DNA of 64,000 bases from Yuukianura sp. NJ FZ-2021. Taxonomy: Eukaryota. The stretch covers positions 5,642,001 through 5,706,000 of the forward strand of contig CM102287.1 in the NCBI GenBank assembly GCA_046563655.1. The letters are read 5' to 3'. Under the pieces are notes generated by a model. It was not told where the DNA came from and made no database searches. It saw only the letters and a list, made by a program, of their open reading frames with translations. A program made the translations under genes and the position numbers. This document shows positions 37,175 through 64,000 of this stretch, one piece after another; the first letter of the stretch is position 1; each line of letters begins with the position of its first letter.

Positions 37175-39396
37175 ATGAGTTCACACTCCAAGAAGAAAGT
37201 AGACGCGAAAGCGAAGATGAAGGAACCGGGGAAGGCGAATGGAAGGTCAACTGGACCCTTAACGTTTCGGCTAGATTCGTGTCTCAATTGTGAGATAGCG
37301 TTGGGTCAAGTAAGCTAACATTCAATAATAATAATATTATATTGTTATTAATATTCGTTTTATGGTTGAAGTAATTGCTTCTGACATTTATAATTCCGGA
37401 TTACCGGATTTTTCTTTTGGACATTACAGGGCACAACAAAGGTGGCCGAATTCATGCTGTCATTTTCAGAGACCAGTAAACGAACATTTTCTGTATTAGA
37501 AGCACTAACATCCATCTTCGAGCTTTCCGACACCAACAGCAAGTTCTTCCCAATGCTAACGTCGAAGAATCTTGTAATGTGTCCGAATTGTGCAACAGTA
37601 CTGGCCAATTTATACAAGTCATACGTAGAACTAATGCAGCTGTCGAGACCTACGGCCAACATATGTAAACTCGTTGTCAAAGCGGAGGTAATTGTTGTTT
37701 CAATTCTTTTTGTGTTAAAAGATTTGAAGAATTCACTATTTAATTTGACTTTTAATCCATTTAGAAATGGCACGACTCGAAACGGGACTTCTTGACCACC
37801 ACTTCCAACACAGCCCCTTCCCCATCAAGTGAAGATGATGACGATGAGGAGGACGAAGAAGACGATTCGGATTCTGAAGTAGAACAAAAGAAAAGAATCA
37901 AGAATGAAAGAAAAAGCGACGATGACGACGGCGAGGATGAGGACGAGGATGAATACATTGTACCGAATGGCAGGAGCGCTAGAAGTCGCGCTTCTGGATC
38001 TGCTGCTAAAACCAAGAAACGCAAGGCAGCAAGAGCCAGAAATGGTTTGTTGTCAATCACATACAGCTTACCAATTTAAATCCAATGCTTCTGGTGTTAA
38101 CCCGGAAGACTTTACGTCGAGAGTGATTGATTTATTTTGACATATCTTGTTTCAGGAAGTTATTATGATGATGATGAAAGTGATGAGGAATATCGCGGAC
38201 CAAAGCCGAAAAGGAAACCCCGTAGCTCACAGCCCAAGGGTACTGGACGCGTCGACAGAAGTAGAATACGCGAAAGAATCACACTAGCTCTCGACGGTAC
38301 ACCAAGAAAGCGAATTCGCAGACGACCATCTCAGACACGAGAAGACGATTACAAATGTCTCGAGTGTGACCGAATCTTCAAATTTGAATGTCGTTTGATC
38401 AAGCACATGAAGACACACTTGGAGAAACAGCGAACCCAATGTGAAAGCTGTGAAAAAACGTTTCCTTATTCCTGGATGTTGGAGAATCATGTTCTCGCTG
38501 ATCATGAACACGTCAAGCCCAAAGTCTGTAGCGTTTGCGACCTCGTGTTCTACAGAACAGAAATTCTTGAAAACCACTTCTGCACTCCGAAAGATCAACA
38601 GGCGGCTGAGAGAGCAGAAAAACCGCACCGATGTGAACTCTGTGGCAAGGCCTTCCAGAAACTGGCTCATTTGACACTCCATCTTCGTTCTCACGAAGAC
38701 GAGAAGCCTATGAAATGTCCCCACTGTGCCCAGAAGTTTAGATATGAAAAATGTCTCTCGAAGCACATGCAGGTTCATGAAACGGCACATATTTGTCCAC
38801 TTTGCCACAAGGAGTTCCAAGCAAAGTCAAAATTGAATACGCATATGCAGAGCCACGACGTGGAGAAGACCTATCCCTGTCCTAATTCAACTTGCGACAA
38901 AGTGTTTCGTCAGGCTACGGCTCTTCACCGTCACTTGAAGTCGCATGGTGGAGACGCAGGGGCTGGAGGTGACGAAGGAGTCAGATTTGGCTGTGACAAT
39001 TGCCCGAAATCATTCGGCCGGAAGTCGGATCTGAGTCGACATGTTCGTAACCAAGTGTGTATAAAAGAAGAGGGTGTGGGCAAAGGCGGGGATGATGAAG
39101 ACCAGGATGGAACGGACAAAGAAGCTACTTCTGATGAAGAAGAGGCTGAAGGTCAAGGTTCCGATGGAGATTCGATGTCGCCCGGAGTCAATTCGGATAA
39201 TGAGAATACTTTACCTTCATCTCCATCACCACTACCGTCTCCGCAGCTTAACCTTTCAGAAGAAGATTCCAATTCTGCACCGGCAGTAGCCTCTGTTACC
39301 AAAATTGAAAAAGTCGAAGGGGATGAGATTGTACTGGCAATGAAGAGCACTCCAACTCCGGTCGCAGATACGGACGATTCGTTTCTTTCCGAATAG
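37175..39396 (+). CDS. ZAD (zf-AD)-type C2H2 zinc-finger protein, ~637 aa
   Basis: Exons 37175-37309, 37430-37687, 37765-38044, 38156-39396. N-terminal CLNC...CPNC pair (ZAD-like), an acidic/basic linker with NLS-like runs, then 8 fingers (6 C2H2, 2 C2HC variants) and an acidic tail. The start codon is inferred; upstream 5'-UTR exons are likely (donor ACAG|GTAAGG near 36729). Confidence 0.85.
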
Positions 39397-44981: not shown

Positions 44982-45508
44982 CTGGATGACATGACAGAAA
45001 CACTGAATTGTGTTTTCAAAGTTTACAAGATGGAGGACGGAAGTAAATTGGAAGTGACTTACCTTCACGAGACTCAATTTATGTCACTTTCTTCTGTATT
45101 GGCGTCCCATCCTAGTTTTTGAACCTTTGGCAACTCCCGTGGCTCTAAGTACGTCAATTAACCACCAGGAAACAGACATGGAGACAATGGGACATTAAAA
45201 ACTTAACTGCTACATTAGTTAACTACCTTCATCATTTCTAAATCGGAACGATTGATCACTGTTAATTCCGGAATTAGTACCCAGAAACTAGAAATTATGG
45301 ACAGAAATATCACATCCGGTTTTCAGAATCTTCCTACCAAAACTGTTGTTGCTACTGGCAACACCATTTGTTATCATGGAGTCTCACAAAAGCAAAATAC
45401 TGCTGAAGTTCATTCGAAATCTTTGGAATTCAAGGTCAAAGGTCACAAATCCTTCACATCACTTTCAATTTTTTTGTAGTAAATTGTATTCGAAAACTTG
45501 ACATCAAA

Positions 45509-48500
45509 ATGGAGGAGGAGTCCGAAGCAGAATCTCCACCACACCGACGATGCAAACGACTTGAACGACTGGCATATACTAAGAAGAGGACCAAAGCTCA
45601 GCTTATGGCAGCATGGGAACGTCCATTCCGTGAAGGCATTTCAGCATGCTTTTCTTCTGGATCCATTTTGGAAAAAACCGGATTTTTGTCAGCAAAGGAC
45701 CGCCGTGCAACAGCCACGTCCGTACTGTCAAGGGCTTCCAAATTACGCATGTCCGATGCAGACCGGAGGAGTACCGCGCTGTTTCGGTACTCGTCGTACC
45801 ACAGAAGCACATCATCCGGAATGAGCCGCTCTTCAGCACGACGGAAAAGCACGGCAAGTAGTAAAAGTATCGAAGAGCGGGAACGAATTGGCCGAATTAC
45901 CGAAAACATTGTGACTCCTACGCGGTATCGCCTTTGCCTCAAGCCGCACTTGGAGACACTTAAATTTGATGGATCAGTTTTGATCGAATTTGGACCAATG
46001 AGAAGCTGGGACAGTCAGGACAGTCTGGACAATCCAGCTCCTTTATTCTTGTCACGACTTGTGCTAAATGCTTTGGATCTTCATATTGAGAAGGTAGCTT
46101 GGGCTGACGAAACGACGATGGACCAACAAGAAGCCTCGAGTGTTGTCATGGACCGGAAAACGGAACGTGTGACACTGGAATTTGACAAGCCTGTGACACT
46201 TCCTGGAGTCTTGATTATCAACTTCTCGGGTCACATCTTGGAAGGAACGTCTGGATTTTATAGATCAACGGTAACTACGTCAACTGGACTTACGACATAC
46301 TGCGGAGTCACAAAATTTGAACCTACGTTTGCACGAAAATGTTTTCCGTGCTTGGATGAACCCGGAACGAAATCAAAATTTGATTTGAGTCTTATTCTTC
46401 CGAAACATTTAACAGCAATTTCAAATCAGGTTAGAATGTTTGAAAATGTTTCCGAATTTTGGAATTTTGAAACTTCAATTTTGGAATTTTGAAATTGCTA
46501 GCCAATTCAAGCAATCGTTCCTCATCGTACAAACACACATCTCCACGTGATTGAATTTGAACCAACTCCACCTATCGCACCACATCAGTTGACCTTTGCC
46601 ATAGGCGAATTTGAGGTCATCGAAGGTCACGCCGATTCGGCTCCAGATTTCGTCGACATCAAAATTCATACCAGCGGAAACAAAACCGGGAAAGCTCAGC
46701 TTGCTCTGGAATGTGCCCAAGCTTGCCTCGAATTCTATCACTTTTACTTTGAACTTCCGCTTGAAATGAGAAAACTTGACCTGCTCAGCTTGACCTCTCA
46801 TGTGGACTCTGGCGTGGGAAACTGGGGCGTAGCGACTTTTGCAGAAAATCAACTTCTGCAGAAACACGATGGTGACATTGAAGAGGGCGCTGACATAGCT
46901 CTCTTAGTTTCTCGTGAAGTTGCTCATCAGTGGATCGGAAGTCTAGTTGGCATTGATTGGTGGAGTCGACTGTGGCTCAGAGACGGTCTGGCTACACTTC
47001 TTGCATACATGAGCATCGACTATTTCGAACCAAAATTTCAAATTTGGCGGAAATTTGCTGGTGATGTAATGGCAAGGGCACTGGAAGCTGATGCTCTACG
47101 CAGTACACATTCACTTGAACCAATCGTCAGCTCTCCATTGGAAATCCAAACAATTTTTGACGACATTGCAAACGACAAAGGAGCAGCGATTATGAGAATG
47201 ATTCAGGGATTTGTTGGGGAAAAAACGTTTCAGACGGGAATTCAAACGTATTTGAAGCGATTTGGGTACAAGAGTGCCTCTACGGCAGACTTTCTTCTGA
47301 TTCTGGAAGAAGTTAGTGAGAAACCAGTGGCAACAATTTTCGAAACTTGGATCAAACGATCTGGATTTCCAATTATCAAAGTGGAGTCGTCGCAGCTTGA
47401 AACTGGCGGAGTTTCGCGTGTTGTGATCATCCGTCAAGAGCCGTTTGCGTTCTCCCTGGAACCGATTTATGCTACACCGAAGATGCGTCGTAGTGACAAT
47501 CACCGATGTCAGTGGATTATTCCGATTCATATGTCGCTGTCCAGTGCACCGTCGCAGCCTGTCAAGGAATTCATCATGGACAAGCCAGCACAAAAATTCA
47601 GAGTCAACGACACAAATCCAAATGACTGGTTCATGGTAAGCCTTTGGAATCCAGATTACTAAAAGTAATTCTAGAAGACTTAAAATTAGGTGTAATAGTG
47701 TTACTCCCTCCAGTTCAGCTACTTCTGTTTTAAAATTTGGCGAGAGTAACTGTTTAGCTGTAAACATGTTTGTCGAAGGTTGGCAGTTACTCCCTCTAGT
47801 TTATAAACTACCCCAAAGGCCTCGTTTGCTGACTGAAGGGAGTAACTATAAATATTTTAACTTCAAAAAAAAAATTTCCTACAAAAACTTCAGAGATTTC
47901 TTGGCTGGAGGGAGTAACTACTGGGAATAATTCACGATATGATTTTGTTTTTAAAGTTGAACCCGGGATTCGTTGGATTCTACCGTGTCAAGTATCCACC
48001 AGAAATGATTGGAAAGTTTTTGAAAGCAATTCGTCTGAAGCAATTTGCACTGGAAGATCGACTGGGACTTTTGAATGACCTCCACGCTCTGACCTCAGTT
48101 GGCGTATCCACCACAATGGAATTGTTCACAATGCTGGAATCATTTGTAGACGAAGATGAGTATTTAGTTTGGAAAGAAATCAACTCCGTTGTTGCAAGTC
48201 TCGACCTTCTGCTGCAAAGTGACGAATGTTACCCAAAATTCAAACTTTTTTCACAAAACGTTTTTCGTAAAATCCATGCAAAACTGGGATGGAAGGCCAA
48301 AGCAGATGAAAGTTCAGCAGATAAAAAGTTGCGCTTGATGGTTCTTCAGCGTCTGCTTCGATTTGGGAAGAAAACGTGTGTGGAAGAAGGATATCGACAG
48401 TTTCGTCAATGGCTGAATGGGGCGAGCATCGAATTGCCCCAAATTGCATTTCAGGCTGGAATCGCTGATTCCGAAAACCACGACGAAGTTTTCCGAACTC

Positions 48501-49041
48501 TTGTCCGGGTATGCTAACTTTTTTTTTGTTCAAAACGAAGAATTTGAACATTTTTGTTCCAAAAGTGTACTGAAAAACCTTTCTTTTCTAGCATTTCAAA
48601 GACTCGAAATATTTTAAAGAAAAAGCAGACATCATTCAAAGTTTTGGATTTGCTGAAACCGAAGAAGCCATCATGGCAATTTTGGATTTTACAGTCTCCG
48701 ACGTAGTTAATACTGAAGAGACTGTTGTGATCATGGACGGTCTAATGCAAAACGCTATTGCGAAACCACTTGCTTGGACGTTTTTCAAAAACCATGTTGC
48801 GGTTTTTCAAAAACGATTTCACGGAGTAAGTGATTTGGAAGGTAAACTGATTCAAACTGTGACAAAGTACTTGGCCACTTCAGCCAAGCCTTCAGACGTG
48901 GCAACTTTCTTCCAACGTCACAATTTCAATGGAACTGAAAATATTGTTCAAGAGAGTTTAGACAAAATGAAGTTGTATGCTGCGTGGTTCAAGCGAGACA
49001 AGCAACAAATTGAAGAGTACTTGGGTCCTTACGAAGACTAA
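45509..49041 (+). CDS. M1-family (puromycin-sensitive aminopeptidase-like) protein with degenerate catalytic motifs, ~1018 aa
   Basis: Exons 45509-46429, 46502-47635, 47957-48508, 48592-49041 (3057 nt, open frame). M1 hallmarks: VTPTRYRL, GFYRS, FEPTFARKCFPCLDEP, AISN, WIKRSGFPII, LNPGFVGFYRVKY and an ERAP1-C-like tail. GAMEN reads GVGN and HExxH-x18-E reads RExxH-x18-D. No signal peptide or TM segment seen. Confidence 0.9.
47700..47918. mobile_element. MITE-like inverted-repeat element in aminopeptidase intron 2
   Basis: Perfect 14-bp inverted repeat GTTACTCCCTCCAG (47700-47713) / CTGGAGGGAGTAAC (47905-47918), with an inner inverted pair AGTTACTCCCT / AGGGAGTAACT. This intron (321 nt) is much longer than the gene's other two (72 and 83 nt). 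Confidence 0.6.
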
Positions 49042-52000
49042 AAAACTATGTTTCAAAAACCTACTTTTCATTGTTGAACTTTTACTTCAAAATTCCTTGT
49101 TTGTTGATTACTTCGCTGAATTTCAACATTCAGTAAATTATTGCTCTTTTTTCATTTAATGAATTTTTCCTTATTTCGAAACTTATTTTTGGACAACCGT
49201 GGGAAATAAATGAAATTACCAAAACAAAAATATCCGCACCGTTAAAACTGCTGTATAAAAAATAGTTCACTATTTGTTAGTATAAACTTCACTTTTTAAT
49301 TCAAGGTGACATGAAGTGACGCTCAGAGGATGGATGACAAAGTTCAATCTATCTCGATCTATACACGTATCTGGATTTTTATCTTGAAAATGGAGGTGTC
49401 GTAAGGATTGATTTGTAAGTGTTAATCAATTTCATTTTTTCATGATATGATTTCAGTAGTTAATCATACGTCCTTCATTTGCTGGGCGAAGTCAAAAAAT
49501 TACGTTTCAGATTTTATTCCATTTACTAGCTAAGTATTCGTCATGAATAAGGAAAACAGGCTTTTCATTTCATTTCTTATTTGCAATGCCCTGATTGGTG
49601 GAGCAGTTGGGCAATACGATACTCCGTTCCTTGGCAAAGTTTATGGCGACACAGATCCAGTAGGGGTTGTTGTGAATCCCGACGGATATTCAATTTTCAT
49701 CTATGAAAACAGAGTGGTGGCAGCCGAGAGAAACTACGTAGCGGAAATTAAATACACTGGTAACATAAAAATTTTTGGTCAAGGGACACTAGATGTTAAA
49801 AAAAAATTGTAACTTCAAAAAATCCTAATAATTTTTGAAAATTATTGAAAATTTGAAAAGGGACTGACGTGCCCACTGTTTCGCTCATTGAGGGAACTGG
49901 AACTAAACCTGAATTGCGAATCGTTAGAGATGCAAATGTTGGTGGAAAATTTTTCCTGGAACTTTTAAATCAACTGGATTATGAAAACCGTGGGGCGGGT
50001 ACTTGGAGCATACAACTGGATCCGAAAGCTCCGAATTCCTTCATAGTGTCTCCACTTGACATCGACGACATGTAAAACAATCGAAACGAGCTTTACCTTA
50101 ACATTTTGAATAACTTATGTGTTTCAAATTTTTGTTTTTGAAGGGACCCTTTCTTCACAGAGTATGCGCTGACGGCACTAAAGGCAGATGAAGGAGACTT
50201 TAGCAGCGACAAAGTTTTGTTCACTTACAAAGCTACCGATCCAGATACGGTTGATGTGGGGAAACTAGCATACGCTCTAACGGTAGACATCAAATAATAA
50301 AAAAAACGAAACAAAACGTTTAGGTTACGTGGCGTGAATTCTTAAATTTGATTGAAATACATTCAGGATTTAGATAATGGCGCCAACACGCCATTTGTTA
50401 TCGACTCCATTACTGGGGAACTGAGACAGACAGCGGCATTGGACTACCAACTTCAATCAGTTTATAGGCTCCAAATGACCGTGACAGATTCCGATGGGGT
50501 TAACGCCATGCCTGCACCTTCGGTTACTTTAGTCAATGTCAATGACCTTCCGAACCAACCTCCGCGGTGGGTATCGGTCAACCCCGTCCTTCAAGTTGCA
50601 GAAAACAACGATCCTAATACAGTAAGGATGCCAGAGCAAGAACTAAATTACACTGTGTAACTTACTACGTATGAAATATTTTTAGGATCCGGCAGTGTTC
50701 AAGTATGGCGCAGTCGATGGAGACACGATGGTCAACAGTCCAATGAAATACTACCTGGAGGGCGGTAATGTATAAGATGTTTTAAAATTTCAAATTTTTT
50801 CAAAAATTGGCTTCCGTTTGATTTTGTAACATTAAGCAATCGGTTTTCTTGATTTTAGTTCCGGTGGATCCAATAAGTTCTACTCCGTATTTGACAATCG
50901 GCGAAGCTTCCGGAGAAATCCGAGTGAATGTAGTCTTGGATGCTGAACAAATAGAAGATTCGACATTCACTTTTCAAGCTGTGGCAGAGGAAGTGATCAA
51001 TACCGTTCCGAATTTGAAAATTAAAGAAACCGTTACGTTTTTCATTTTGGACCAAAACGATAACCTTCCTATATTTGATGACGGAGAGTCTGAGAAACCG
51101 TTTCAAGTTGTAATTGATGAGAACACTTCCGGTTCACTACCGGGCTTGGAGGAACTGATTATCATTGACAAAGACAGGGTTAGCCAATTTTAATATAAAT
51201 TAAGAGGAATATGCTTATTGTTGTGTTCTGGCGAACAGGATTTGGCGTATAGTGAATATGTAGCAAGGTTGAAGGCAGATGACCCCGACACGGAAGTGTG
51301 GGTGAACGAAATGTTTTCAGTGACTCCGTCAAAGGGTTATGGCGGCGGTACTTTTGTGGTTCAAATTAAGCCCAGTACGGTTATCAACTATGAAGATGCA
51401 CAATGGCAGAAACCCATACAATTTTATGTCACTGTAGAAGAAGCCAGTGACCCTCAACGATTCGCTAGAGGAGCGATTTCATTGACAGTGAAGGTAACTT
51501 CAATGCAACTACTAATTCTCATTCTACATTTGCTAGCCAATCAGGTTTCGAGTTAATTGGTCATCAATTTGTACGTTCCATTTGTAACCTCTAGGATTTG
51601 AACGACAACAGCCCGGTATTTGGTGGAGTCGACGCAAACGGAGAAATCGTAGTTGAAGTTTCCGAGGGGATTCTGATTGGTCAAACTGTTACGACAATTC
51701 TTACCACTGACGCAGACATTTCCCCAGGATTTGGAACAGCCAGCATTAGGTAATTCTAAATACTAATCATTTTTAACTTTTGATATGATTTTCAATGAGC
51801 GACATGTTGCATCAAAAAAATTTCAGATTTCCGAAATTGAAAATTTGAAATGAAATTTTGAAATCCTTTTAATTTGAAATTCCAGATACTTTTGGGGTGT
51901 ACCAGCACCTAACGACTTGGCAATCGATGAGGTCACTGGCATAATTACGACCAAAACAAACTCCCCGTTTGACCGAGAGTTGATGCCACAAGAGGTGTAC

Positions 52001-55000
52001 ATTGTAAACGCAATTGATTCTGAAAATGCGCCAAACGCACGAAAGACGTCTACAATTCAGCGATTCGTCATACAGGACGTTAATGATGAACCACCACTCA
52101 TTACCGCGGTAAAATCGGACTAAATACTGAAAAACTTTCAGTATCATTTTGTATCACATTACGATTTTGTTTGTTTTTGAAGACTTCGCGTCAAATTACA
52201 ATTCAAGAAAACACAGAACTGGATTTCGTTTTCGAAGGAATTCAAGTGACCGATCCAGACGAAAAGCCTGATTTGGAGATTGAGTGTACTGTTGGGGGAC
52301 CTACTGAGACTCAAGGGTTTGTGTCAATGTCACCTTTGATTTTTTTTTGAAAAATGTTTCAAGTCGTAATTTTGAATTTGGAAATTTTAGTTGGTTTAAA
52401 TGTGAAAGCACGAGACATGAACCCGGTGGAATGTTGATGGCCAAGATTCTTCTTGCTGGTATTGAACTTCCGGACTACGAAATGACAAACAGGGTGGACA
52501 TTGAAATGAAGGCATCTGATGGTGTCCATTCCTCTATTGAAGTGTTTACCGTCTTTATTACAAATTTGAACGACGAGTATCCAGTTTTTGATGAGATTGG
52601 AGAAATTTTCTACACAGAAACAGAAGCTTGTGTTGGAAATGACTGCGAAAGTGAAAGTAGACGTGAAATTCATCAGTTCCGTGTACAAGATAAGGACTCT
52701 CCACCAAGCGAAATTGAATTCAGCATAACGTAAGATTTCAACGAAAATTCAAAACATTTTCAACAGAAATTCTCATTCCTTCCCGAATTTGGCCATTTTA
52801 GATCCAAGGTTCCTGGAACTCTTGATTTGGTTGAAATCAATCCAACCAGCGGCATTTTAAGCCGAAAAGTGGGGGCGGTGATTGACCGTGAAAAAACAGA
52901 CATCCTGTATATCGACGTAACTGCACATAACCTCATATGTGACGACAATGGTTGCACTCATGACCCAATAATATTTACAACTGAAGAAGACGTAAGTTTT
53001 TATTATTTCGAATAAATGTGGTTTTCAATACAGCGTTTCTATTTGAGTAAATCTATATTTAGGTACCGATTAACATTGAGGATATTAACGACGAGTTTCC
53101 AGTTTTCGAGGATAGTCCCACTGAATTTACAATAGAAGAGAATGAATCGAGCGGTGACATTCACCAATTCGTTGCAACAGATAAGGACGAGGGTTAGAGA
53201 AAAAAATCACAGTAGTGTTCCACAAAATATCAAAAAAAAATCAAGTATTGTGAAATTTTGCAGGAAGATTTGGACAAGTAATTTATTTTTTGGATGAAAA
53301 TTATTTGGAGGGACACGGCCTTGACAAATTTGAGATCAACGAAAACACAGGCGTGTTGTCAATTAAGGCACAGCTTGACCGTGAAACGGATGCGCAGTAT
53401 GGACTTCGTATTGTGGCTCGAGACAACGGAGGCAGTCAAAGTAACTTTCACAATTGAATTTACAACAAAAAAAATCTAAACTGTACTCTTGACTATTTTA
53501 AAATTTAAAAATTTGAAAGGTAATTCCAATGATGGCGAGAGATTTATCACCATTTTGATTAAGGATGTGAACGACAATGCAGTAAGTACTGCTATTTCTT
53601 TTATGACTAATTGTTTTGTATTGAATTTCACGTTGACAGTATGTCACCAATTCGTTCTTTTTTAGCCACAAATCTCAAATTTTGAGTTTCATAGTCAATT
53701 TGAGGACCAAATTTCACCAGAAATGGAATTGGGAAAGCTTCAATTACACGGTATATTTGACTTGGAACTTTTTAAACACAAATTCAAGAAACACCTTAAT
53801 TTTTTTTTTAAATCTAGATATCGATGAACCGGATACCCAGAATTCTCTCGTTGGCGCCGAATTAATTGGCGTAACGTATGTAGATTGTCCGAATTGTGAT
53901 ATGCTGATGATGAATTGGAGGGATCACTTTGAGGGTTTGTTCGAGGGTGCAACAAATACGTTCAGAATTTACGCCAAAACGAATTTGTACCCGTATTTTG
54001 GAAAGTACAGCTTTGAAATTTTCGTAAGCACAGTTATAGATTTTGGATTGAATTATGGAAACATATTGAGCTAACATTGTCAATAGGCCTACGATTACGG
54101 TACACCGATGGCTCACTTTACTGATACAGTTGGTCCATTCGAAATTACTGATGTCAACGATCATACGTAAGATTTAGAAATTTTGGAAAATATAAGTCCA
54201 AATCCGAAAATTTTGAAAGTATTATAATATTTTGTTTGCTCTTAACTGTAGCCCAGTTGTATTCTTTCCCACGGCGAACGAAAACACGCATGTGTACATT
54301 GCTGAGGTAAGTCTACTACAACAGGAACAGTTTCAGTTTGGCCTAACCCTTGCTGTCAGGTTAAACTAAATTCTGAATGTAATATTGAAAGTCATACTAA
54401 TATGACCGTATTATAATAATATTAATAATATTAAGTTATATTATTATACTCAAATACTATTTCATTTCTCTTAGAATCATCCAATACTGGGCCAAGGTAA
54501 CGACGTTGCCGCTAGGTTGACGGAGTGGGACAATATACAAGTACGTGCATTAGCAGGCGATGACCTCGGTAACATGAATTTAATTTAAAGTTTTAAACTT
54601 TTTGTTAAGAAAATATTGACAAGGATGATTTTGAATTTTGTTGTTTAAATCGTTTCAGACGATCCAAACCTTGGAAATGGTCAAATCACGTTTTTGGTTG
54701 ATCCAAATGGAGAGGGTGAGTTATCGATTACGTCTTATAGTGTTTGCTGGACAATAAGGGTTAAGTACTCAACTAACAAATTTTAAATTAAATATATATG
54801 TTTATTTGTACTACACAAAAAGACCAACTTTTAGCTTAATTATAATTACAGTATTCGATCCTAAAACGCTTTGTTCACTTTACAATAGGATACGAATACT
54901 TTGTCGTTGTTCCCGGCGATGAGGACGGAATATTTTATATAGCAGTCAAGGCCCAACTGGTTGTAGACGAACAAGGGGTACCGTTGCGGGTAAGTTAACA

Positions 55001-56220
55001 TATTTTTAAAAAAATTAATTCTGTTTCGAATTTTAAAAGTTTTTATTTTTCAAAATTTTCATTTTAGGTAGGAATTATTGCGAAAGACAATGGAGCTGCT
55101 CCGAGACAATCAGAGCCACAGATAATGCTCATCAGCGTCGTACCTGAATCCAACCAAGAACCAATATTCGTTGGAGAAAATGCTCAAGTACACATCCAAG
55201 GTTTACGCTTTAGTCATTATACGCTACTGTAAAACATGTTTCCAGTTCACTGTTCACTGGTTGAATTTTTAGTATAATAATTTTGAATATAATTAATATA
55301 AATAACTCTAATTTTAGAAAATGCAACTCTGCCAGCACCGATTGTTCTACTGGCAGCTTCCGACCTGGACACAATTGGAGACGCACCTCTGGACCGCTTT
55401 GGAAACGACATTTGTTACTACATTATAGGTATACAAATTTCAGTTTTTAGTTAGAAAGCACGATTTTTTGTGCATGATATCGATTATTATATTTTGTATT
55501 TTATGTTTCTAGCTGGTGACACGACGCAATCGTTTCAATTGGACCCGTACACGAACAAGCTGACTTTAAAACAAGGAATAGTCCTGGATCGCGAGCAAGT
55601 TCCTACGTACCAATTATCAATTCTGGCTAAGAACGACAAACCAAATGCTTGCCAACCTCCTACTACCATACCTCCGCTGGACTCACCCAGTGTTCTCAAT
55701 GTCCAGATCATCGTAGATGACGTCAAGGACACTGCACCTCGGTTTGTTGACCTTGGTACTTGTTCTGGCGGAGTTCGTACCTCTACAGCAGAAATCGGCA
55801 GCTCAACTTCTATTGTTCTGCTGGGCGAAGAGGATGACCTCAATGACCCCACCACGTTTACCATCGATGACAAAACACTTGAAAGATCAGATCCATCGCT
55901 AGCTGGAATCCAGGATCCTGTTTTTACAATCAGCGAAACTAACGAAATTCTGATCAACTTCCAAGCTAATGAAGCTATGAAGGGATACTTTACGTTTACG
56001 GTATTCCTGACAGATTCTGGTAAGCATCAAACAGCAAATTTTCCTCGGCTTGTCAACTTCTGCTTTTAAGCTTTACCAAATTATGCACTCTGAGACCAAA
56101 ATTTTGAAATTTTGTTTGTAGTTGGAATGCTAGCAACTCAAATGTGTAAAGTGTATCTCACTCACGAGCACGACTCCATATAACTACGTTGAATTTCAAT
56201 TTGACGATGGTTATGAAGAA
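48986..56220 (+). repeat. Tandem segmental duplication, copy A (~7.2 kb)
   Basis: Runs from the last ~56 nt of the aminopeptidase CDS through the intergenic region and cadherin exons 1-26. Colinear and near-identical by eye, including most introns, with 56225-63530. Confidence 0.95.
49543..56183 (+). CDS. Cadherin paralog 1 (BtR1/Cad88C-like), C-terminally truncated and predicted secreted, ~1458 aa
   Basis: 26 exons with canonical GT-AG sites and a continuous frame (4377 nt): 49543-49759, 49861-50071, 50144-50282, 50367-50621, 50686-50764, 50859-51178, 51239-51493, 51595-51749, 51886-52108, 52183-52316, 52391-52729, 52802-52991, 53063-53192, 53264-53440, 53520-53581, 53666-53750, 53818-54023, 54087-54166, 54252-54306, 54475-54568, 54659-54715, 54889-54989, 55068-55200, 55318-55428, 55513-56019, 56122-56183. 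Signal peptide and ~12 EC repeats (LDYE/LDRE, DxD, DxNDxxP motifs). Ends VYLTHEHDSI* with no TM. Confidence 0.85.
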
Positions 56221-56224
56221 GACA

Positions 56225-56280
56225 GGTTCAAGAGAGACAAGCTACAAATTGAAGAATACTTGGGTCCTTACGAAGACTAA
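56225..56280 (+). pseudogene. Duplicated 3'-terminal fragment of the aminopeptidase CDS
   Basis: GGTTCAAGAGAGACAAGCTACAAATTGAAGAATACTTGGGTCCTTACGAAGACTAA matches 48986-49041 (FKRDKLQIEEYLGPYED* vs FKRDKQQIEEYLGPYED*). It is followed by a copy of the 3' UTR with AATAAA at 56450-56455 (original at 49205-49210). Confidence 0.92.
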
Positions 56281-59200
56281 AAAAATATGCTTAAAAAAAC
56301 TACTTTTTCATTGTTGAATATTTACTTCAAAATTCGTTGTTTGTTGATTAATTTACTTCGCTGAGTTTCAACATTCAGTAAATTATTTATCTTTTTTCTT
56401 TTAACGAATTTTTTCTAATTTCGAAACTTACTTTTGGACAACCATGAGAAATAAATGAAATTACAAAAAAAAAATATCCGCACCGTGAAAACTGCTGTAT
56501 AAAATAGGTCACTATTTGTTAGTACAAACTTCACTTTTAAATTCAAGGTGACATGAAGTGACGTTCAGAGGACGGATGACAAAGTTCAATCTAATATCTC
56601 GATCTATACACGTATCTGGATTTTTATCTTGAAAATGGAGGTGTCGTAAGGATTGATTTGTAAGTGTTAATCAATTTCATTTTTTCATGATATGATTTCA
56701 GTAGTTAATCATACGTCCTTCAGTTGCTGGGCGAAGTCAAAAAATTACGTTTCAGATTTCATTCTATTTAGAACATTTCGCAATGAATAAGGAAAACAGT
56801 CTTCTGATTTTGCTTCTTATTTGCAACGCTCTGATTGGTGGAGCCGTTGGCCAATACGAAACGCCGTTCCTTGGCAAAGCTTATGGCGACACAGATCCAG
56901 TAGGGGTTCATGTGAATCCCGACGGAAATTCAATTTTCATCAATGAAAACAGAGTGGTGGCAGCCGAGAGAAACTACATCGCGGAAATTAAATACACTGG
57001 TAACCTAAAAAAAAATTTCGATGATGAAAAAATGAAAACTGGATTTTTTAAAATTATATTTTCCGAAATCCTAATAATTTTTGAAAATTTTTGAAAATTT
57101 GAAAAGGAACTAACCCGGAAGTGCCCACTGTTTTGCCCATTGACGGAACTGGAGTTAAACCTGAATTACGAATCGTTAAAGACTTGGCTCTTGGCAAATT
57201 TTTTCTGGAACTTTTAAATGAATTGGATTATGAAGACAAAGGGATTTGGTACATTAACTTGGATCCAACAGCTCCTGCGCCTATCTTAGTAGCTCCAGTT
57301 GACATTGACGACATGTAAATCAAATTAATCGACCTCAGCTAGGTTAAATTAACCTATCGTATTCTTAAATGCTTTTAATACAACATTGGCTTTGTTTTTG
57401 AAGGGACCCCTCCTTCACGCAATATGCGACTGCACTAGACTCAGATGAAGGGGACTTTAACAGCGACAAAATTTTATTCACTTATAAAGCGACCGATCCA
57501 GATACGGTTGATGCGGATAAACTAACATACGCTCTAACGGTAGACATGAAACCATTAAAAAAACGAAACATTTAGGTCACGTGACGTGACTTTAAGTAAC
57601 TCACGATTTAAATTCGATTGAAATACATTCAGGATTTAGATAATGGCGCCAACACGCCATTTGCCATTGACTCGACTACTGGGGAATTGAGGCAAACAGC
57701 GGCATTGGATTACCAACTTCAATCAGTTTATAGGCTCCAAATGACCGTGACAGATTCCGATGGGGTTAACGCCATCTCTGCACCTTCAGTCACCTTAGTC
57801 AATGTCAATGACCTGCCGAACCAACCTCCGCGGTGGGTATCGGTCAACCCCGTCCTTCAAGTTGCAGAAAACAACGATCCTGCTACGGTAAGGATTACAC
57901 AGGAAAAACTAAATTAACCCGCATAACATGAAATTTTGTTTAGGATCCGGCATTGTTCAAGTATGGCGCAGTCGATGGAGACACGATGGTCAACAGTCCA
58001 ATGAAATACTACCTAGAGGGCGGTAATGTTCAAACTGTTAATAATTTTCAACTTTTGTCAAAATTGTTTATCTTTTGATTTTGCAACATTAAGCAATCGG
58101 TTTTTTTTTATTTAAGTTCCGGTGGATCCAATAAGTTCAACTCCGTATTTGACAATCGACGAAGCTTCCGGAGAAATCCGAGTAAACGTAGTCCTGGACG
58201 CTGAACAAATAGAAGATTCGACATTCACTTTTCAAGTTGTGGCTGAAGAAATGATCAACACCGTTCCGAATTTGAAAATTCAAGAAACCGTTACGTTTTT
58301 CATTTTGGATGAAAACGATAACCTGCCTATATTCGATGACGGACAGTCTGAGAAACCGTTTCAAGTTGTAATTGATGAGAACACTTCCGGTTCTCTGCCG
58401 GGATTGGAGCAACTGATTATCATTGACAAAGACAGGGTTGGACAATTTTTGAAATTTTGTGTAAATTATGGGGAATGCTTATTGTAATGCGTTTTGATGA
58501 ACAGGATTTGGCGTATAATGAATATGTGGCAAGGTTGAAGGCTGATGACCCCGACACGGAAGTGTGGGTGAACGAAATGTTTTCAGTGACTCCGTCAAAG
58601 GGTTATGGCGGCGGTACTTTTGTGGTTCAAATTAAGCCCACTACGGTTATCAACTATGAAGATCCAGAATGGCAGAAACCTATACAATTTTATGTCACCG
58701 TAGAAGAAGCCAGCGACGCTACACGATTCGCCAGGGGAGTGATTTCGTTATCAGTCAAGGTAATTTTATAAAGTTAAAACTTATTTTTCATTCCAATTTT
58801 GCTAGGTGAAGCTAGCCAATCAGGTTTTGCTCATGAATTTGTACGTTCCATTTGTAACCTCTAGGATTTGAACGACAACAGCCCGGTATTTGATGGAGTC
58901 GACGCAAACGGAGAAATTGTAGTTGAAGTTTCCGAGGGGATTCTGATTGGTGAAACTGTTACGACAATTCTTGCCACTGACGCAGACATTTCCCCAGGAT
59001 TTGGAACTGCGAGCATTAGGTAATTCTAAATACTAATCATTTTTAAGTTTTGATACGATTTTCAATGAGCGACCTGCTGAATCCAAAAAATTTCAGATTT
59101 CCGAAATTGAAAATTTGAAATGAAATTTTGAAATCCTTTTAATTTGAAATTCCAGATACTTTTGGGGTGTACCAGCACCGAACGACTTGGCAATCGATGC

Positions 59201-62200
59201 GGTCACTGGCATAATTACGACCAAAACAAACTCCCCGTTTGACCGAGAGTTGATGCCACAAGAGGTGTACATTGTAAACGCAATTGATTCTGAAAATGCG
59301 CCAAACGCCAGAAAGACGTCAACAGTTCTGCGACTCGTCATACTAGACGTTAATGATGAACCACCACTCATTACCACGGTAAGATCGGACTGAAATCTGA
59401 AAAACTTTCAGCAACAATTTGTTTCAAATTACGATTTTGTTTTTTTGAAGACCTCTCGTCAAATTACAATTCAAGAAAACACAAAACTGGATTTCGTTTT
59501 CGAAGGAATTCAAGTGACCGATCCAGACGAAAAGCCTGATTTGGAGATTGAGTGTACTGTTGGAGGACCTACTGAGACTCAAGGGTTTGTGTCAATGTCA
59601 CCTTTGATTTTTTTTCGAAAAATGTTTCAAGTCGTAATTTTGAATTTGGAAATTGTAGTTGGTTTAAATGTGAAAGCACAAGGCATGAACCCGGTGGAAT
59701 GTTGATCGCGAAGATTCTTCTTGCTGGTACTACTGAAACTGAACTGCCGAACTACGAAGTGACAAACAGGGTGGACATTGAAATGAAGGCATCTGATGGT
59801 GTGCAGTCTTCGGTTGAAATGTTTACCGTCTTTATTACAAATTTGAACGACGAGTATCCAGTTTTTGATGAGATTGGAGAAATCTCCTACACAGAAACAG
59901 AAGTTTGTGTAGGAAACGACTGCGAAAGTGAAAGTAGACGCGAAATTCATCAGTTCCGTGTACAAGATAAGGACTCTCCACAAAGCGAAATTCAATTCAG
60001 CATAACGTAAGTTCAACTCAAAATTCAAAACATTTTCAACAGAAATTCTCATTCCCTCCCGAATTTGGCCATTTTTAGATCCAAAGATCCTGGAACTCTT
60101 GATTTGGTTGAAATCAACCCAACCAACGGCATTTTAAGCCGGAAAGTGGGGGCCGTGATTGACCGTGAAACAACAGCTACTTTGCACGTCGACGTAACTG
60201 CACACAACCTCATATGTGACGACAATGGTTGCACTCATGACCCAATAATATTCACAACTGAAGAGGACGTAAGTTTTTAATATTTTGGATAAATGTGGTT
60301 TTCAACACAGCGTTTCAAATTTTATTTGAGTAAATTCATATCTAGGTACCGATTAACATTGAGGATATTAACGACGAGATTCCAGTTTTCGAGGATAGTC
60401 CCACTGAATTTACAATAGAAGAGAATGAATCTAGCGGTGACATTCACACATTCGTTGCAACAGATAAGGACGAGGGTTAGAGAAAAAATTTACAGTAGTG
60501 TTGTACAAAATAGCGAAAAAAAAATCAATTATTGTGAAATTTTTGCAGGAAGATTTGGAGAAGTAGTTTACTTTTTGGATGAAAATTATTTGGAGGGACA
60601 CGGCCTTGACAAATTTGAGATCAACGAAAACACAGGCGTGTTGTCAATTAAGGCACAGCTTGACCGTGAAACGGATGCGCAGTACGCACTTCGTATTGTG
60701 GCTCGAGACAACGGAGGCAGTCAAAGTAACTTGCACAAATTTCATTGAATTTTCAACAAAAAAAAATCCAAACTGTAACTCTTTACTAATTTAACATTTA
60801 AAAATTAATTTGAAAGGTAATTCCAATGATGGGGAGAGAATTATCACCATTTTCATTAAGGATGTGAACGACAATGCAGTAAGTACTGCTAATTTCATTT
60901 CATTACTAATTGTTTTGTATTGAATTTCACGTTGACAGTATTTCACCAATTCGTTCTTTTTTAGCCACAATTCTCAAACATTGAGTTTCCGAGTAAATCT
61001 GAGGACCAAATTTCACCAGAAATGGAATTGGGAAAGCTTCAACTAAACGGTTATTTGACTTTGAAATTTAAAACTTAAAAAGAAATTTTTAAAAACTATT
61101 AGAAGAATCACTTAATTTTTGAAAATATCTAGATATCGATGAGGCGGATACCCCGAATTCCCTAGTTGACGCCGAATTAGTTGGCGTAACGTATGTAGAT
61201 TGTCCGAATTGTGATATACTGATGATGAATTGGAGGGATCACTTTAAGGGCTTGTTCGAGGGTGCAACAAATACTTTCAGAATTTACGCCAAAACGAATT
61301 TGTATCCGTATTTTGGAAAGTTCAGCTTTGAAATTTTTGTAAGCACAGTTATACATTTTAGTTTGATTCGGCATTTTATGGAAACATATTGAGCTAACAT
61401 TGTCAATAGGCCTACGATTACGGTACACCGATGGCTAACTCTACTGGTACAGTTGGTCCACTCGAAATTACTGATGTCAACGATCACACGTAAGATTTTC
61501 AAATTTTGGAAAATATAAGTCCAAATCCGAAAATTTTGAAAGAATTATCATATTTTTTTCCTTGTAACTCTAGCCCAGTTGTATTCTTTCCCACGGCGAA
61601 CGAGGCCACGCATGTGTACATTGCTGAGGTAAGCCTACAACAGGAACAGCTTGAGTTTGACCTAACCTTTGCTTTCAGATTAAACTAAATACTGAATATA
61701 ATATTGAAAGTCATACTAAATATCATATGACCATATTATAATATTAATAGCATTAACTATATTATTATATTCAAATATTTCATTTCTCTTAGAACCATCC
61801 AATACTGGGCCAGGGTAACGACGTTGCCGCTAGGTTGACGGAGCATGACAACACACAAGTCCGTGCATTAGCAGGCGATGACCTCGGTAAGTTGAATTTA
61901 ATTTAAAGGTTTAAACTTTTTAGCCGTTAACAGAATATTGACTAGGATGAGTTTGAATTTTGTTGTTTAAATCGTTTCAGACGATCCGAACCTTGGAAAT
62001 GGTCAAATCACGTTTTTGATTGATCAAAATGGAGAGGGTGAGTTATCAATTACATCGTAGAGTTTACTGGACAATAAGGATTAAGTACTTAACAAATATT
62101 AAATTAAATATTATATGTTTATCTTTATATGTACTATATAAAAAGACTAACTTTTAGCTTAACTACAGCATGCGATCGATCGTTAAGCGCTTTGTTCACT

Positions 62201-63530
62201 TTACATTAGGATACGAATACTTTGACGTTGTTCCCGGCGATGAGGACGGAATATTTTACATAGCAGTCAAGGCCCAACTGGTTGTAGACGAACAAGGGGT
62301 ACCGTTGCGGGTAAAACTCGAAAAATTTAATTTTGAATTTTAAAATTAAGTTTTTACTTAAAAATTTTTGTTTTAGGTAGGAATTATTGCTAAAGACAAA
62401 GCCGCTCCTCCGAGACAATCAGAGCCGCAGATAATGCTCATCAGCGTCGTACCTGAATCCAACCAAGAACCAATATTCGTTGGAGAAAACGCTGAAGTAC
62501 ACATCCAAGGTTTGGCACGCTTTAGTCATTATAAGCTGTAAAAACACGTTTCCAGTTCACTGTTCACTGGTTGAATTTTTAGTATAATAATTTTGTATAT
62601 AATTAGTATAACTAACTTCAATTTTAGAAAATGCAACTCTGCCAGCACCGATTGTTCTACTGGCAGCTTCAGACCTGGACACAATTGGAGACGACCCTCT
62701 GGACCGCTTCGGATATGACATTTGTTACTACATTATAGGTACGCAAATATCTGTTTTTAGTTAAAATAGAATACGATTTTTTGTGCATATCGATTATTTA
62801 TGTATATTATATTTTGTATTTTATGTTTCTAGCTGGAGACACGACGCAATCGTTTCAATTGGACGAGTATACAAACACGCTGACTTTAAAACAAGGCATA
62901 ATCCTGGATCGCGAGCAAGTTCCTACGTACCAATTATCAATTCTGGCTAAGAACGACAAACCAAATGCTTGCCAACCTCCGACTACCATACCTCCGCTGG
63001 ACTCACCCAGTGTTCTCAATGTCCAGATCATCGTAGATGACCTCAAGGACACTGCACCTCGGTTTGTTGACCTTGGTACTTGTTCTGGCGGAGTTCGTAC
63101 CTCTACAGCAGAAATCGGCAGCTCAACGTCTATTGTTCTACGGGGCGAAGAGGATGACCTCAATGACCCCATCACGTTTACCATCGATGACAAAACACTT
63201 GAAAGATCAGATCCATCGCTAGCTGGAATCCAGGATCCTGTTTTTACAATCAGCGAAACTAACGAAATTCTGATCAACTTCCAAGCTAATGAAGCTATGA
63301 AGGGATACTTTACGTTTACAGTATTCCTGACAGATTCTGGTAAGCATCAAATAGCAAATTTTTTGCATCTTGTCAACTTCTGTTTTTAGTTTTAACAAAA
63401 TTATGCACTCTGAGACCAAAATTTTGAAATTTTGTTTGTAGTTGGGGAGGAGGCAACTCAAATGTGTAAAGTGTACCTCACTACTCCAGACAACTACGTT
63501 GAATTTCAATTTGACGATGGTTATGAAGAA
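56225..63530 (+). repeat. Tandem segmental duplication, copy B (~7.3 kb)
   Basis: Colinear with 48986-56220. Homology ends after GATGGTTATGAAGAA (63530), beyond which only this copy continues into the membrane-proximal and TM exons. Confidence 0.95.
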
Positions 63531-63985
63531 TTCACTGACTCAATTATATCCCAAGTAGAAACTATCATGTCTGAAAACTATGGATACCTCTGCAACATTG
63601 ACAAAGTACGCAACACGACTGATGAAAATGGAAACGCATTTGCTGGAAAAACAACAATTGAGACACACTTTATCGATGAAAGCAAAACCGAACCTGTCCC
63701 GAGCTACTTAATTACGGAGTAAGCTCTAACTTTTTTAAGCTTTTGTATATTAATTGACGTTAACTTTTTAAATTTATTTAGTCTACCATACGATGAACCT
63801 GAAAAGTTCATTAACCTCACAGCGGCTCTCCAAGATATTGGACTCAACCTGGACATAAAATCATACTATGAAGAACCGGTAGATGAAACACAAGGAATTT
63901 TGACCTACATTCTCGTCGGAGCTGTAATAGTTCTCACAATCGTCGTTGTCATTGTTTCAGTCAGTTGCTGGTTCAACTCTAGACG
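56783..63985 (+). CDS. Cadherin paralog 2 (BtR1/Cad88C-like, membrane-anchored); 3' partial, cytoplasmic tail beyond the window
   Basis: Same exon series as paralog 1, then a full membrane-proximal domain (VYLTTPDNYVEFQF...YGYLCNIDKV...IETHFID, resembling the CNIDQV...HFI motif of lepidopteran BtR1-type cadherins). Exon 63782-63985 encodes the TM helix ILTYILVGAVIVLTIVVVIVSVSCWF and ends at a GTAACT donor. Confidence 0.9.
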
Positions 63986-64000
63986 GTAACTGCGAAGATT

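Follow-up and report, generated by a model that had tools for sequence, protein, structure and literature searches.

What does a tandem duplication leave behind when its two breakpoints lie in two different genes? The question is raised by a 64,000-nucleotide (nt) stretch of DNA from Yuukianura sp. NJ FZ-2021 (GenBank assembly GCA_046563655.1, contig CM102287.1, positions 5,642,001 to 5,706,000), hereafter the window, in which an M1 aminopeptidase-like gene is followed by two copies of a BtR/AgCad-type cadherin gene, the first of them cut short where it meets a fragment of the aminopeptidase. Positions given below are counted from the first letter of the window, and all features described lie on its forward (+) strand. 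The explanation that we favour, and hold to be on balance probable, is that an end-joining duplication made a cadherin copy without a membrane anchor, which was then maintained, and that the captured aminopeptidase piece is now untranslated and acts as its 3′ untranslated region (UTR) and terminator. An earlier note, made from the letters alone, had seen in the same junction an in-frame fusion of cadherin to the aminopeptidase C terminus, born with a ready-made stop and poly(A) signal that would have kept its mRNA stable from the start.

The window is eukaryotic, with a G+C content of 36-43% and introns of 60-170 nt. A direct tandem duplication of 7.24 kb is recovered by blastn as a single alignment of 48986-56220 with 56225-63530, in which the two units are 88.9% identical over 7406 columns (553 mismatches, 147 gap openings), and this far exceeds chance. 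The first unit (48986..56220, from blastn and global alignment) contains the aminopeptidase tail, its 3′ UTR, the intergenic promoter region and cadherin exons 1-26, with exon 26 only partial; the second (56225..63530) was delimited by blastn. The start of the unit, 48986, lies in the last exon of the aminopeptidase, 56 nt ahead of the end of its coding sequence, and the end of the unit, 63530, lies within exon 26 of the cadherin gene. The breakpoints are in two different genes, and the junction at 56220-56225 joins the 5′ part of the cadherin to the 3′ part of the aminopeptidase, that is, the first 26 cadherin exons to the last 56 nt of aminopeptidase coding sequence, its stop and its whole 3′ UTR with AATAAA. 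The order along the locus is a whole aminopeptidase, the cut-short cadherin copy 1, the junction with a filler, the aminopeptidase tail and 3′ UTR, the promoter, and the whole cadherin copy 2. To this extent the geometry first proposed, cadherin 5′ exons placed by a duplication junction against an aminopeptidase 3′ end, is borne out by both kinds of alignment. No paper on a cadherin/aminopeptidase duplication junction was found in a full-text literature search.

At the junction, the cadherin-derived side ends ...GGTTATGAAGAA at 56220, and the aminopeptidase-derived side, GGTTCAAGAGAGAC..., begins at 56225 and pairs with 48986. The 4-nt filler between them, GACA (56221..56224), matches neither parent. 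The junction reads GGTTATGAAGAA, GACA and GGTTCAAG in succession, the very letters and filler that had been claimed for it, and this string occurs only once in the window; its 24-nt form had no match in metagenome scans. GACA is seen again 11 nt downstream of the filler (AGAGACAAG). A 4-mer match so near is weak evidence, and no claim of templated repair from the downstream GACA is made.

Support for the junction in other DNA comes from Logan contigs (contigs, not raw reads) of four DNA runs, X1 to X4, belonging to two studies. One X2 contig, record 15 with 467 nt, extends over 56002-56498 and departs from the window by 4 other letters and 30 gap letters. One X4 contig (record 27, 314 nt), which carries a different study and organism label, covers 56191-56496; on its left side it has 30 cadherin letters and the 4-nt filler, so that without the filler it falls one letter below the 31-letter rule. 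The two cadherin copies do not differ over 56182-56220, and a unitig made of junction-unique 31-mers must therefore begin at 56191. The X4 record starts at exactly this position, from which it appears that the X4 run contains the junction path as well as the copy-2 path. Crossed by contigs from two studies, the junction is real and not a quirk of assembly.

The exon models of the two cadherin copies were curated by hand and checked by translation, the copy-2 exons being projected on copy 1 through the alignment. The full-length paralogue, copy 2 (56783..64000), starts at ATG 56783 and runs on past the window; its exons 1-27 in the window (exon 25 at 62833-63339, exon 26 at 63442-63718 and exon 27 at 63782-63986) are all open, with AG/GT borders throughout, and yield a partial product of 1575 amino acids (aa). 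The truncated paralogue, copy 1 (49543..56183), is made up of 26 exons; its reading frame opens at ATG 49543, closes at TAA 56181-56183 and encodes 1435 aa. All 25 of its shared exons (49543-56019) are open, every AG and GT is kept, and the shared exons are as long as in copy 2, except for differences of 9, 3 and 9 nt. Hydropathy analysis finds in copy 1 a sole hydrophobic segment, at the N terminus, and no transmembrane segment, and in copy 2 an additional hydrophobic helix at residues 1542-1575, encoded by exon 27. A transmembrane helix and cytoplasmic tail after the repeats are thus missing from copy 1 and present in copy 2, as far as the window reaches. Copy 1 most likely encodes a predicted secreted cadherin ectodomain of 1435 aa, without a membrane anchor.

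Comparison of the two copies indicates that copy 1 has most likely been kept as an intact protein-coding gene under purifying selection, its expression being a prediction. The copies are 91.1% identical in protein over 1412 aligned codons, with 0.162 synonymous (dS) and 0.045 nonsynonymous (dN) substitutions per site and a dN/dS of 0.28 by the Nei-Gojobori method. In the introns 319 of 2271 aligned nt are substituted (14.0%), and there are a further 207 gap columns. Indels were counted separately for the two kinds of sequence: 46 events in 2333 nt of intron, 34 of them not a multiple of 3, and 4 events in 4246 nt of exon (3, 6, 3 and 9 nt), none of which breaks the multiple of 3. At the intron rate about 62 frameshifts would be expected for both lineages, or about 31 per lineage, and the probability of finding none is about 4e-14. 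When the 134 differences between the copies were polarized with 13 full-length arthropod outgroup cadherins, copy 1 appeared to have the derived state at 48 and copy 2 at 38 (binomial p=0.33), so that copy 1 shows no sign of faster decay in this comparison.

The locus would be explained by a non-homologous, end-joining type of tandem duplication of 7.24 kb, with one break in the last exon of the aminopeptidase and the other in exon 26 of the next downstream gene, the cadherin; the breakpoints share no repeat, and the junction has its 4-nt filler. Copy 1 would thereby have been left without the transmembrane helix, the cytoplasmic tail and some 110 residues close to the membrane, would have retained the promoter, the predicted signal peptide and all cadherin repeats, and would then have been maintained as a working gene. 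A 10-nt insertion would have come to end it at TAA 56181-56183, leaving the aminopeptidase piece untranslated.

The insertion decides whether the junction encodes a fusion protein. It reads CACGAGCACG, occupies 56163..56172, is absent from copy 2 in the alignment and is the sole frameshifting indel of the copy-1 coding sequence; a search of the window for its template, with up to 2 mismatches allowed, found no other copy. It lies in the copy-1 terminal exon, in the coding part (56122..56183), which encodes ...VGMLATQMCKVYLTHEHDSI followed by the stop. As the sequence stands, the insertion brings the TAA at 56181-56183, 38 nt upstream of the junction, and no cadherin/aminopeptidase chimeric protein is encoded now because this stop precedes the junction. 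An open reading frame with coding sequence of both parents appears in the window haplotype only if 56163-56172 is removed. The frame then runs ...DDGYEE-DR-FKRDKLQIEEYLGPYED to a stop at 56278-56280. This is the frame used by the aminopeptidase itself, which in the parent ends ...WFKRDKQQIEEYLGPYED with its stop at 49039-49041. Of the in-frame chimera put forward in the earlier note, the fit of the frames survives once 10 nt are taken out, and the chimera as a product of the present sequence does not.

Was the gene nevertheless born as a chimera? Since the insertion is missing from copy 2, it most likely arose after the duplication or in the same repair event, and the explanation that we favour assumes the former order. 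It follows that the gene may well have been born with an in-frame 19-residue aminopeptidase tail, which we rate as somewhat better supported than the opposite; that such a tail ever mattered seems improbable. The most serious rival to the explanation that we favour goes further, and holds that the in-frame tail, the captured stop and the poly(A) signal gave a stable mRNA and mattered for the survival of the new gene, the insertion being late or polymorphic. This is possible, though we regard it as doubtful. It gains from the frame just described and from the aminopeptidase-derived 56 nt (56225..56280; 17 whole codons and TAA 56278-56280, and 3′ UTR of copy 1 in this haplotype), which differ from the parent at only 3 places, 2 of them synonymous. 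Against it, a frame match at the junction is a 1-in-3 event, and the three frames stop 11, 21 and 33 codons past 56215-56217, each before the AATAAA; the match carries little weight because any frame would stop within 11-33 codons. The ready-made stop thus does precede the AATAAA, as had been stated, but it needed no luck. In copy 1 the piece of exon 26 is substituted at 9 of 88 aligned nt (10.2%) and holds the one indel of the gene that shifts the frame; it appears to evolve as if it were unconstrained, which argues against a kept function for a chimeric tail. The aminopeptidase peptide is dispensable, since the rest of the gene has remained under constraint with the tail now untranslated. 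The AATAAA, for its part, varies among contigs, as detailed below.

In the explanation that we favour, the captured aminopeptidase piece most likely serves only as the predicted 3′ UTR and terminator of copy 1. The captured 3′ UTR (56281..56455) ends in AATAAA at 56450-56455, the paralogue of the AATAAA in the 3′ UTR of the parent aminopeptidase (49205..49210), which lies 164 nt past the stop. Shortly after it comes the conserved intergenic region of the cadherin genes (56470..56782, paralogue 49231-49542), presumably promoter and 5′ UTR, in which 15 of 305 aligned nt are substituted (4.9%), less than in the introns. A TATAAA is found at 56498 and at 49254, and the copied aminopeptidase 3′ UTR sits between the copy-1 stop and the TATAAA 56498 of copy 2. 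The captured terminator would therefore place the 3′ end of copy-1 transcripts about 40 nt short of the copy-2 TATA-like box, and the original terminator between the aminopeptidase and the ancestral cadherin would have acted alike. Just 5′ of both cadherin ATGs (49350-49525 and 56595-56770), 176 nt are 98% identical, far above the introns; this stretch is probably core promoter and leader, and a possible short intron of the 5′ UTR (GTAAGT...TTTCAG) can be made out in it by eye.

Several points weigh against the explanation that we favour. The first concerns the poly(A) signal. A complete gene end with AATAAA has indeed been captured in this DNA, as the earlier note had it; however, the hexamer reads AGTAAG in part of the contigs (56451 A>G, 56455 A>G), with AGTAAG depths of 17.3/17.3 in X2, 3.4/3.4 in X4, 72.1/150.6 in X1, and 0/76.7 and 0/106.9 in X3. 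The captured AATAAA is not a fixed element, and other hexamers nearby (AGTAAA 56377, TATAAA 56498) or read-through may matter for the 3′ end of copy 1. The insertion, in turn, is spanned by one contig only, X2 record 15, the one with 30 gap letters relative to the window. Secretion of the copy-1 product is predicted from hydropathy alone. Pairwise dN/dS is unable to split the constraint between the two copies. Lastly, dS is 0.41 over the first 150 codons and falls from 5′ to 3′ to 0.04, with introns diverged by 3-33%, and gene conversion alone could keep the 3′ half looking intact along such a gradient.

The last point leads to the reading of copy 1 as a dead or dying partial duplicate whose intact look comes from gene conversion by copy 2. 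Copy 1 is cut short and its last exon is frameshifted, the divergence of the 3′ half is low (dS 0.04-0.15), and parts of this half have probably been homogenized by conversion, as the gradient suggests. Contigs also switch between the copies at equivalent places, with joints of about 7.3 kb in both directions, which could reflect conversion or may be only a collapse of the assembly graph. Nevertheless, the 5′ third is old, with a dS of 0.41 and introns diverged by 11-33%, yet its frame is open, its three indels are in frame and its dN/dS is 0.32. The intactness of this part does not come from recent gene conversion, because the divergence is highest there. With the promoter region conserved and the rates of the two copies without asymmetry, we consider a dying copy 1 quite unlikely. 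As to the joints themselves, their use as evidence for single-copy alleles or gene conversion was set aside, since contigs from a 31-mer graph switch paralogues at identical stretches. Across 48500-64000 there are many variant contigs and jumps of about 7.3 kb, which could reflect pooled or highly heterozygous material, or a collapse of the paralogues in the graph.

The variable AATAAA and the gap of just 0.6 kb between the copies are also points in favour of another reading, according to which copy 1 is mainly the 5′ part of conjoined transcripts, formed by read-through and by splicing of the exon-25 donor at 56019 to the copy-2 exon-2 acceptor at 57182, and coding for a double-length anchored cadherin. 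Since phase 1 is the starting phase of both exon 26 and exon 2, an exon-25/exon-2 splice would keep the frame. This form is pure inference, however, and the stretch spliced out would hold the conserved promoter and exon 1; we think it very unlikely. Two haplotypes laid in tandem by the assembler, an idea that could draw on the variant contigs of X1 (748 records, 382 of them at least 99% alike, 293 at 95-99% and 73 at 90-95%), can practically be dismissed, since the junction lies within an exon, includes a filler next to a fragment of the aminopeptidase and is bridged by contigs from two studies, and the copies differ by 11% and have separate indels.

To which cadherins do the two copies belong? 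In copy 1, Pfam Cadherin (PF00028) matches the exons at 50367 (29.3 bits, 1.2e-06) and 53266 (39.7 bits, 6.7e-10); the exon at 55515 scores 28.6 bits (1.9e-06) against a cut-off of 28.8, and 3 further exons are weaker. A pattern search with the cadherin linker motif D-x-[ND]-[DE]-x-x-P found seven linkers per copy. A word-based protein search with the copy-2 exon-25 reading frame, covering longer proteins only, returned 1051 candidates and scored 0 of them; a full HMMER scan with exon 25 did find relatives: 91 proteins reached E≤0.001, of which 11 were at ≤1e-10 and a single one at ≤1e-30. Its top two matches are unnamed fragments of 55% and 48% identity, and no relatives of this exon were found in metagenome scans. 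Named relatives include 'Cadherin 2' and cadherin-23 of Anopheles gambiae, a cadherin-23-like protein of Wyeomyia and 'cadherin-AgCad1' of Penaeus vannamei, and further relatives of copy 2 are entries from Lutzomyia, Agrilus and Diachasma. Copy 2 can be aligned end to end with named relatives. By blastp, its residues 1-1531 align with residues 44-1554 of the Penaeus cadherin-AgCad1 (P0116, 1759 aa) at 27.5% identity over 1630 columns; the identity is 25.5% with P0064 and 23-24% with the Anopheles Cadherin 2 cluster. By these comparisons copy 2 is placed among arthropod cadherins of the BtR/AgCad type, at a distance from every named one, insect or crustacean.

Copy 2 resembles the members of this type in its signal peptide, many repeats, membrane-proximal region and single transmembrane helix, and shares only 24-27% identity with them, the Aedes AaeCad included (PMC7018227). 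Unlike them, copy 1 has no membrane-proximal part, no helix and no cytoplasmic tail. The likeness shown is one of sequence.

Chimeric genes made by tandem duplication are known from Drosophila yakuba, where 76 were counted among 1116 duplications in a 2017 study (PMC5460883, accessible part). The geometry given there is the same as here, with the 5′ end of the downstream gene joined to the 3′ end of the upstream gene on the same strand and both parents left whole. Unlike those described in the accessible part of that study, however, the event in our window is old (overall dS 0.16), its product appears to be maintained by selection, and the second parent contributes only a 3′ UTR, and no coding sequence, in the present sequence. 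Partial and chimeric duplicates that recruit flanking sequence have been reviewed by Katju in 2012 (PMC3449122). Like the partial duplicates in the accessible portion of that review, copy 1 has a new arrangement of exons and introns and draws its new 3′ end from adjacent DNA; it departs from them in that the recruited piece is a ready-made gene end, not non-coding DNA.

Taken together, the locus is a well-resolved case in which one imprecise tandem duplication produced a new architecture, an anchorless ectodomain, and a 3′ end at once. The truncated copy appears to have been kept for long under purifying selection (dS 0.16-0.41), and because of this long retention it is a possible teaching case and a candidate for the study of soluble toxin-receptor-type cadherins. 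How such genes are understood to arise is unchanged by it; this would be ordinary gene birth by partial duplication, of a kind already known.

Soluble forms of receptors arise by loss of the membrane anchor, and recombinant fragments of cadherin repeats bind Cry toxins. Copy 1 resembles such anchorless receptors in its predicted complete ligand-binding ectodomain without an anchor; here, however, this form sits in a separate gene, and is not the result of alternative processing or a laboratory product. One speculative role, to which we give little credence at present, is that of a secreted decoy of a BtR/AgCad-type cadherin, maintained by selection in a non-insect arthropod. If this were true, the free ectodomain would soak up pore-forming toxins or other ligands of its membrane-bound neighbour, or would modulate that neighbour, and would parallel in nature the cadherin fragments that are used with Cry toxins in experiments. 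The birth of such a decoy would have needed only a breakpoint just before the membrane-proximal region, adjoining a ready gene end.

The gene that supplied this end, the parent M1 aminopeptidase-like gene (45407..49041), consists of open reading frame pieces 45407-46492, 46502-47662, 47918-48517 and 48592-49041, and its stop is TAA 49039-49041. Its three-domain architecture is recognized in Pfam by Peptidase_M1_N (8.3e-30), Peptidase_M1 (1.3e-52) and ERAP1_C (5e-37 and 7.1e-18), and a word-based search with an aminopeptidase reading frame gave 14 matches of 23-33% identity. The upstream part of the window has no further copy of it. The signatures of M1 enzymes are the GxMEN exopeptidase motif and the HExxH zinc-binding motif; a pattern search found neither of them in the reading frame 46502-47662. 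Judged by eye, GVGNWG and REVAH stand at the aligned places, and RDG in place of the downstream NEG. The gene may encode a non-catalytic pseudo-peptidase.

Further upstream, a single 421-aa open reading frame at 38131-39396 contains several C2H2 zinc fingers (zf-C2H2, 3e-26). It is preceded by a long unc-5-type netrin receptor gene at about 1322-33675, the reading frames of which match Unc5_NetrinR_N (1e-08), TSP_1 (4.5e-08), ZU5 (2.2e-05), UPA (2.6e-06) and Death (6e-06).

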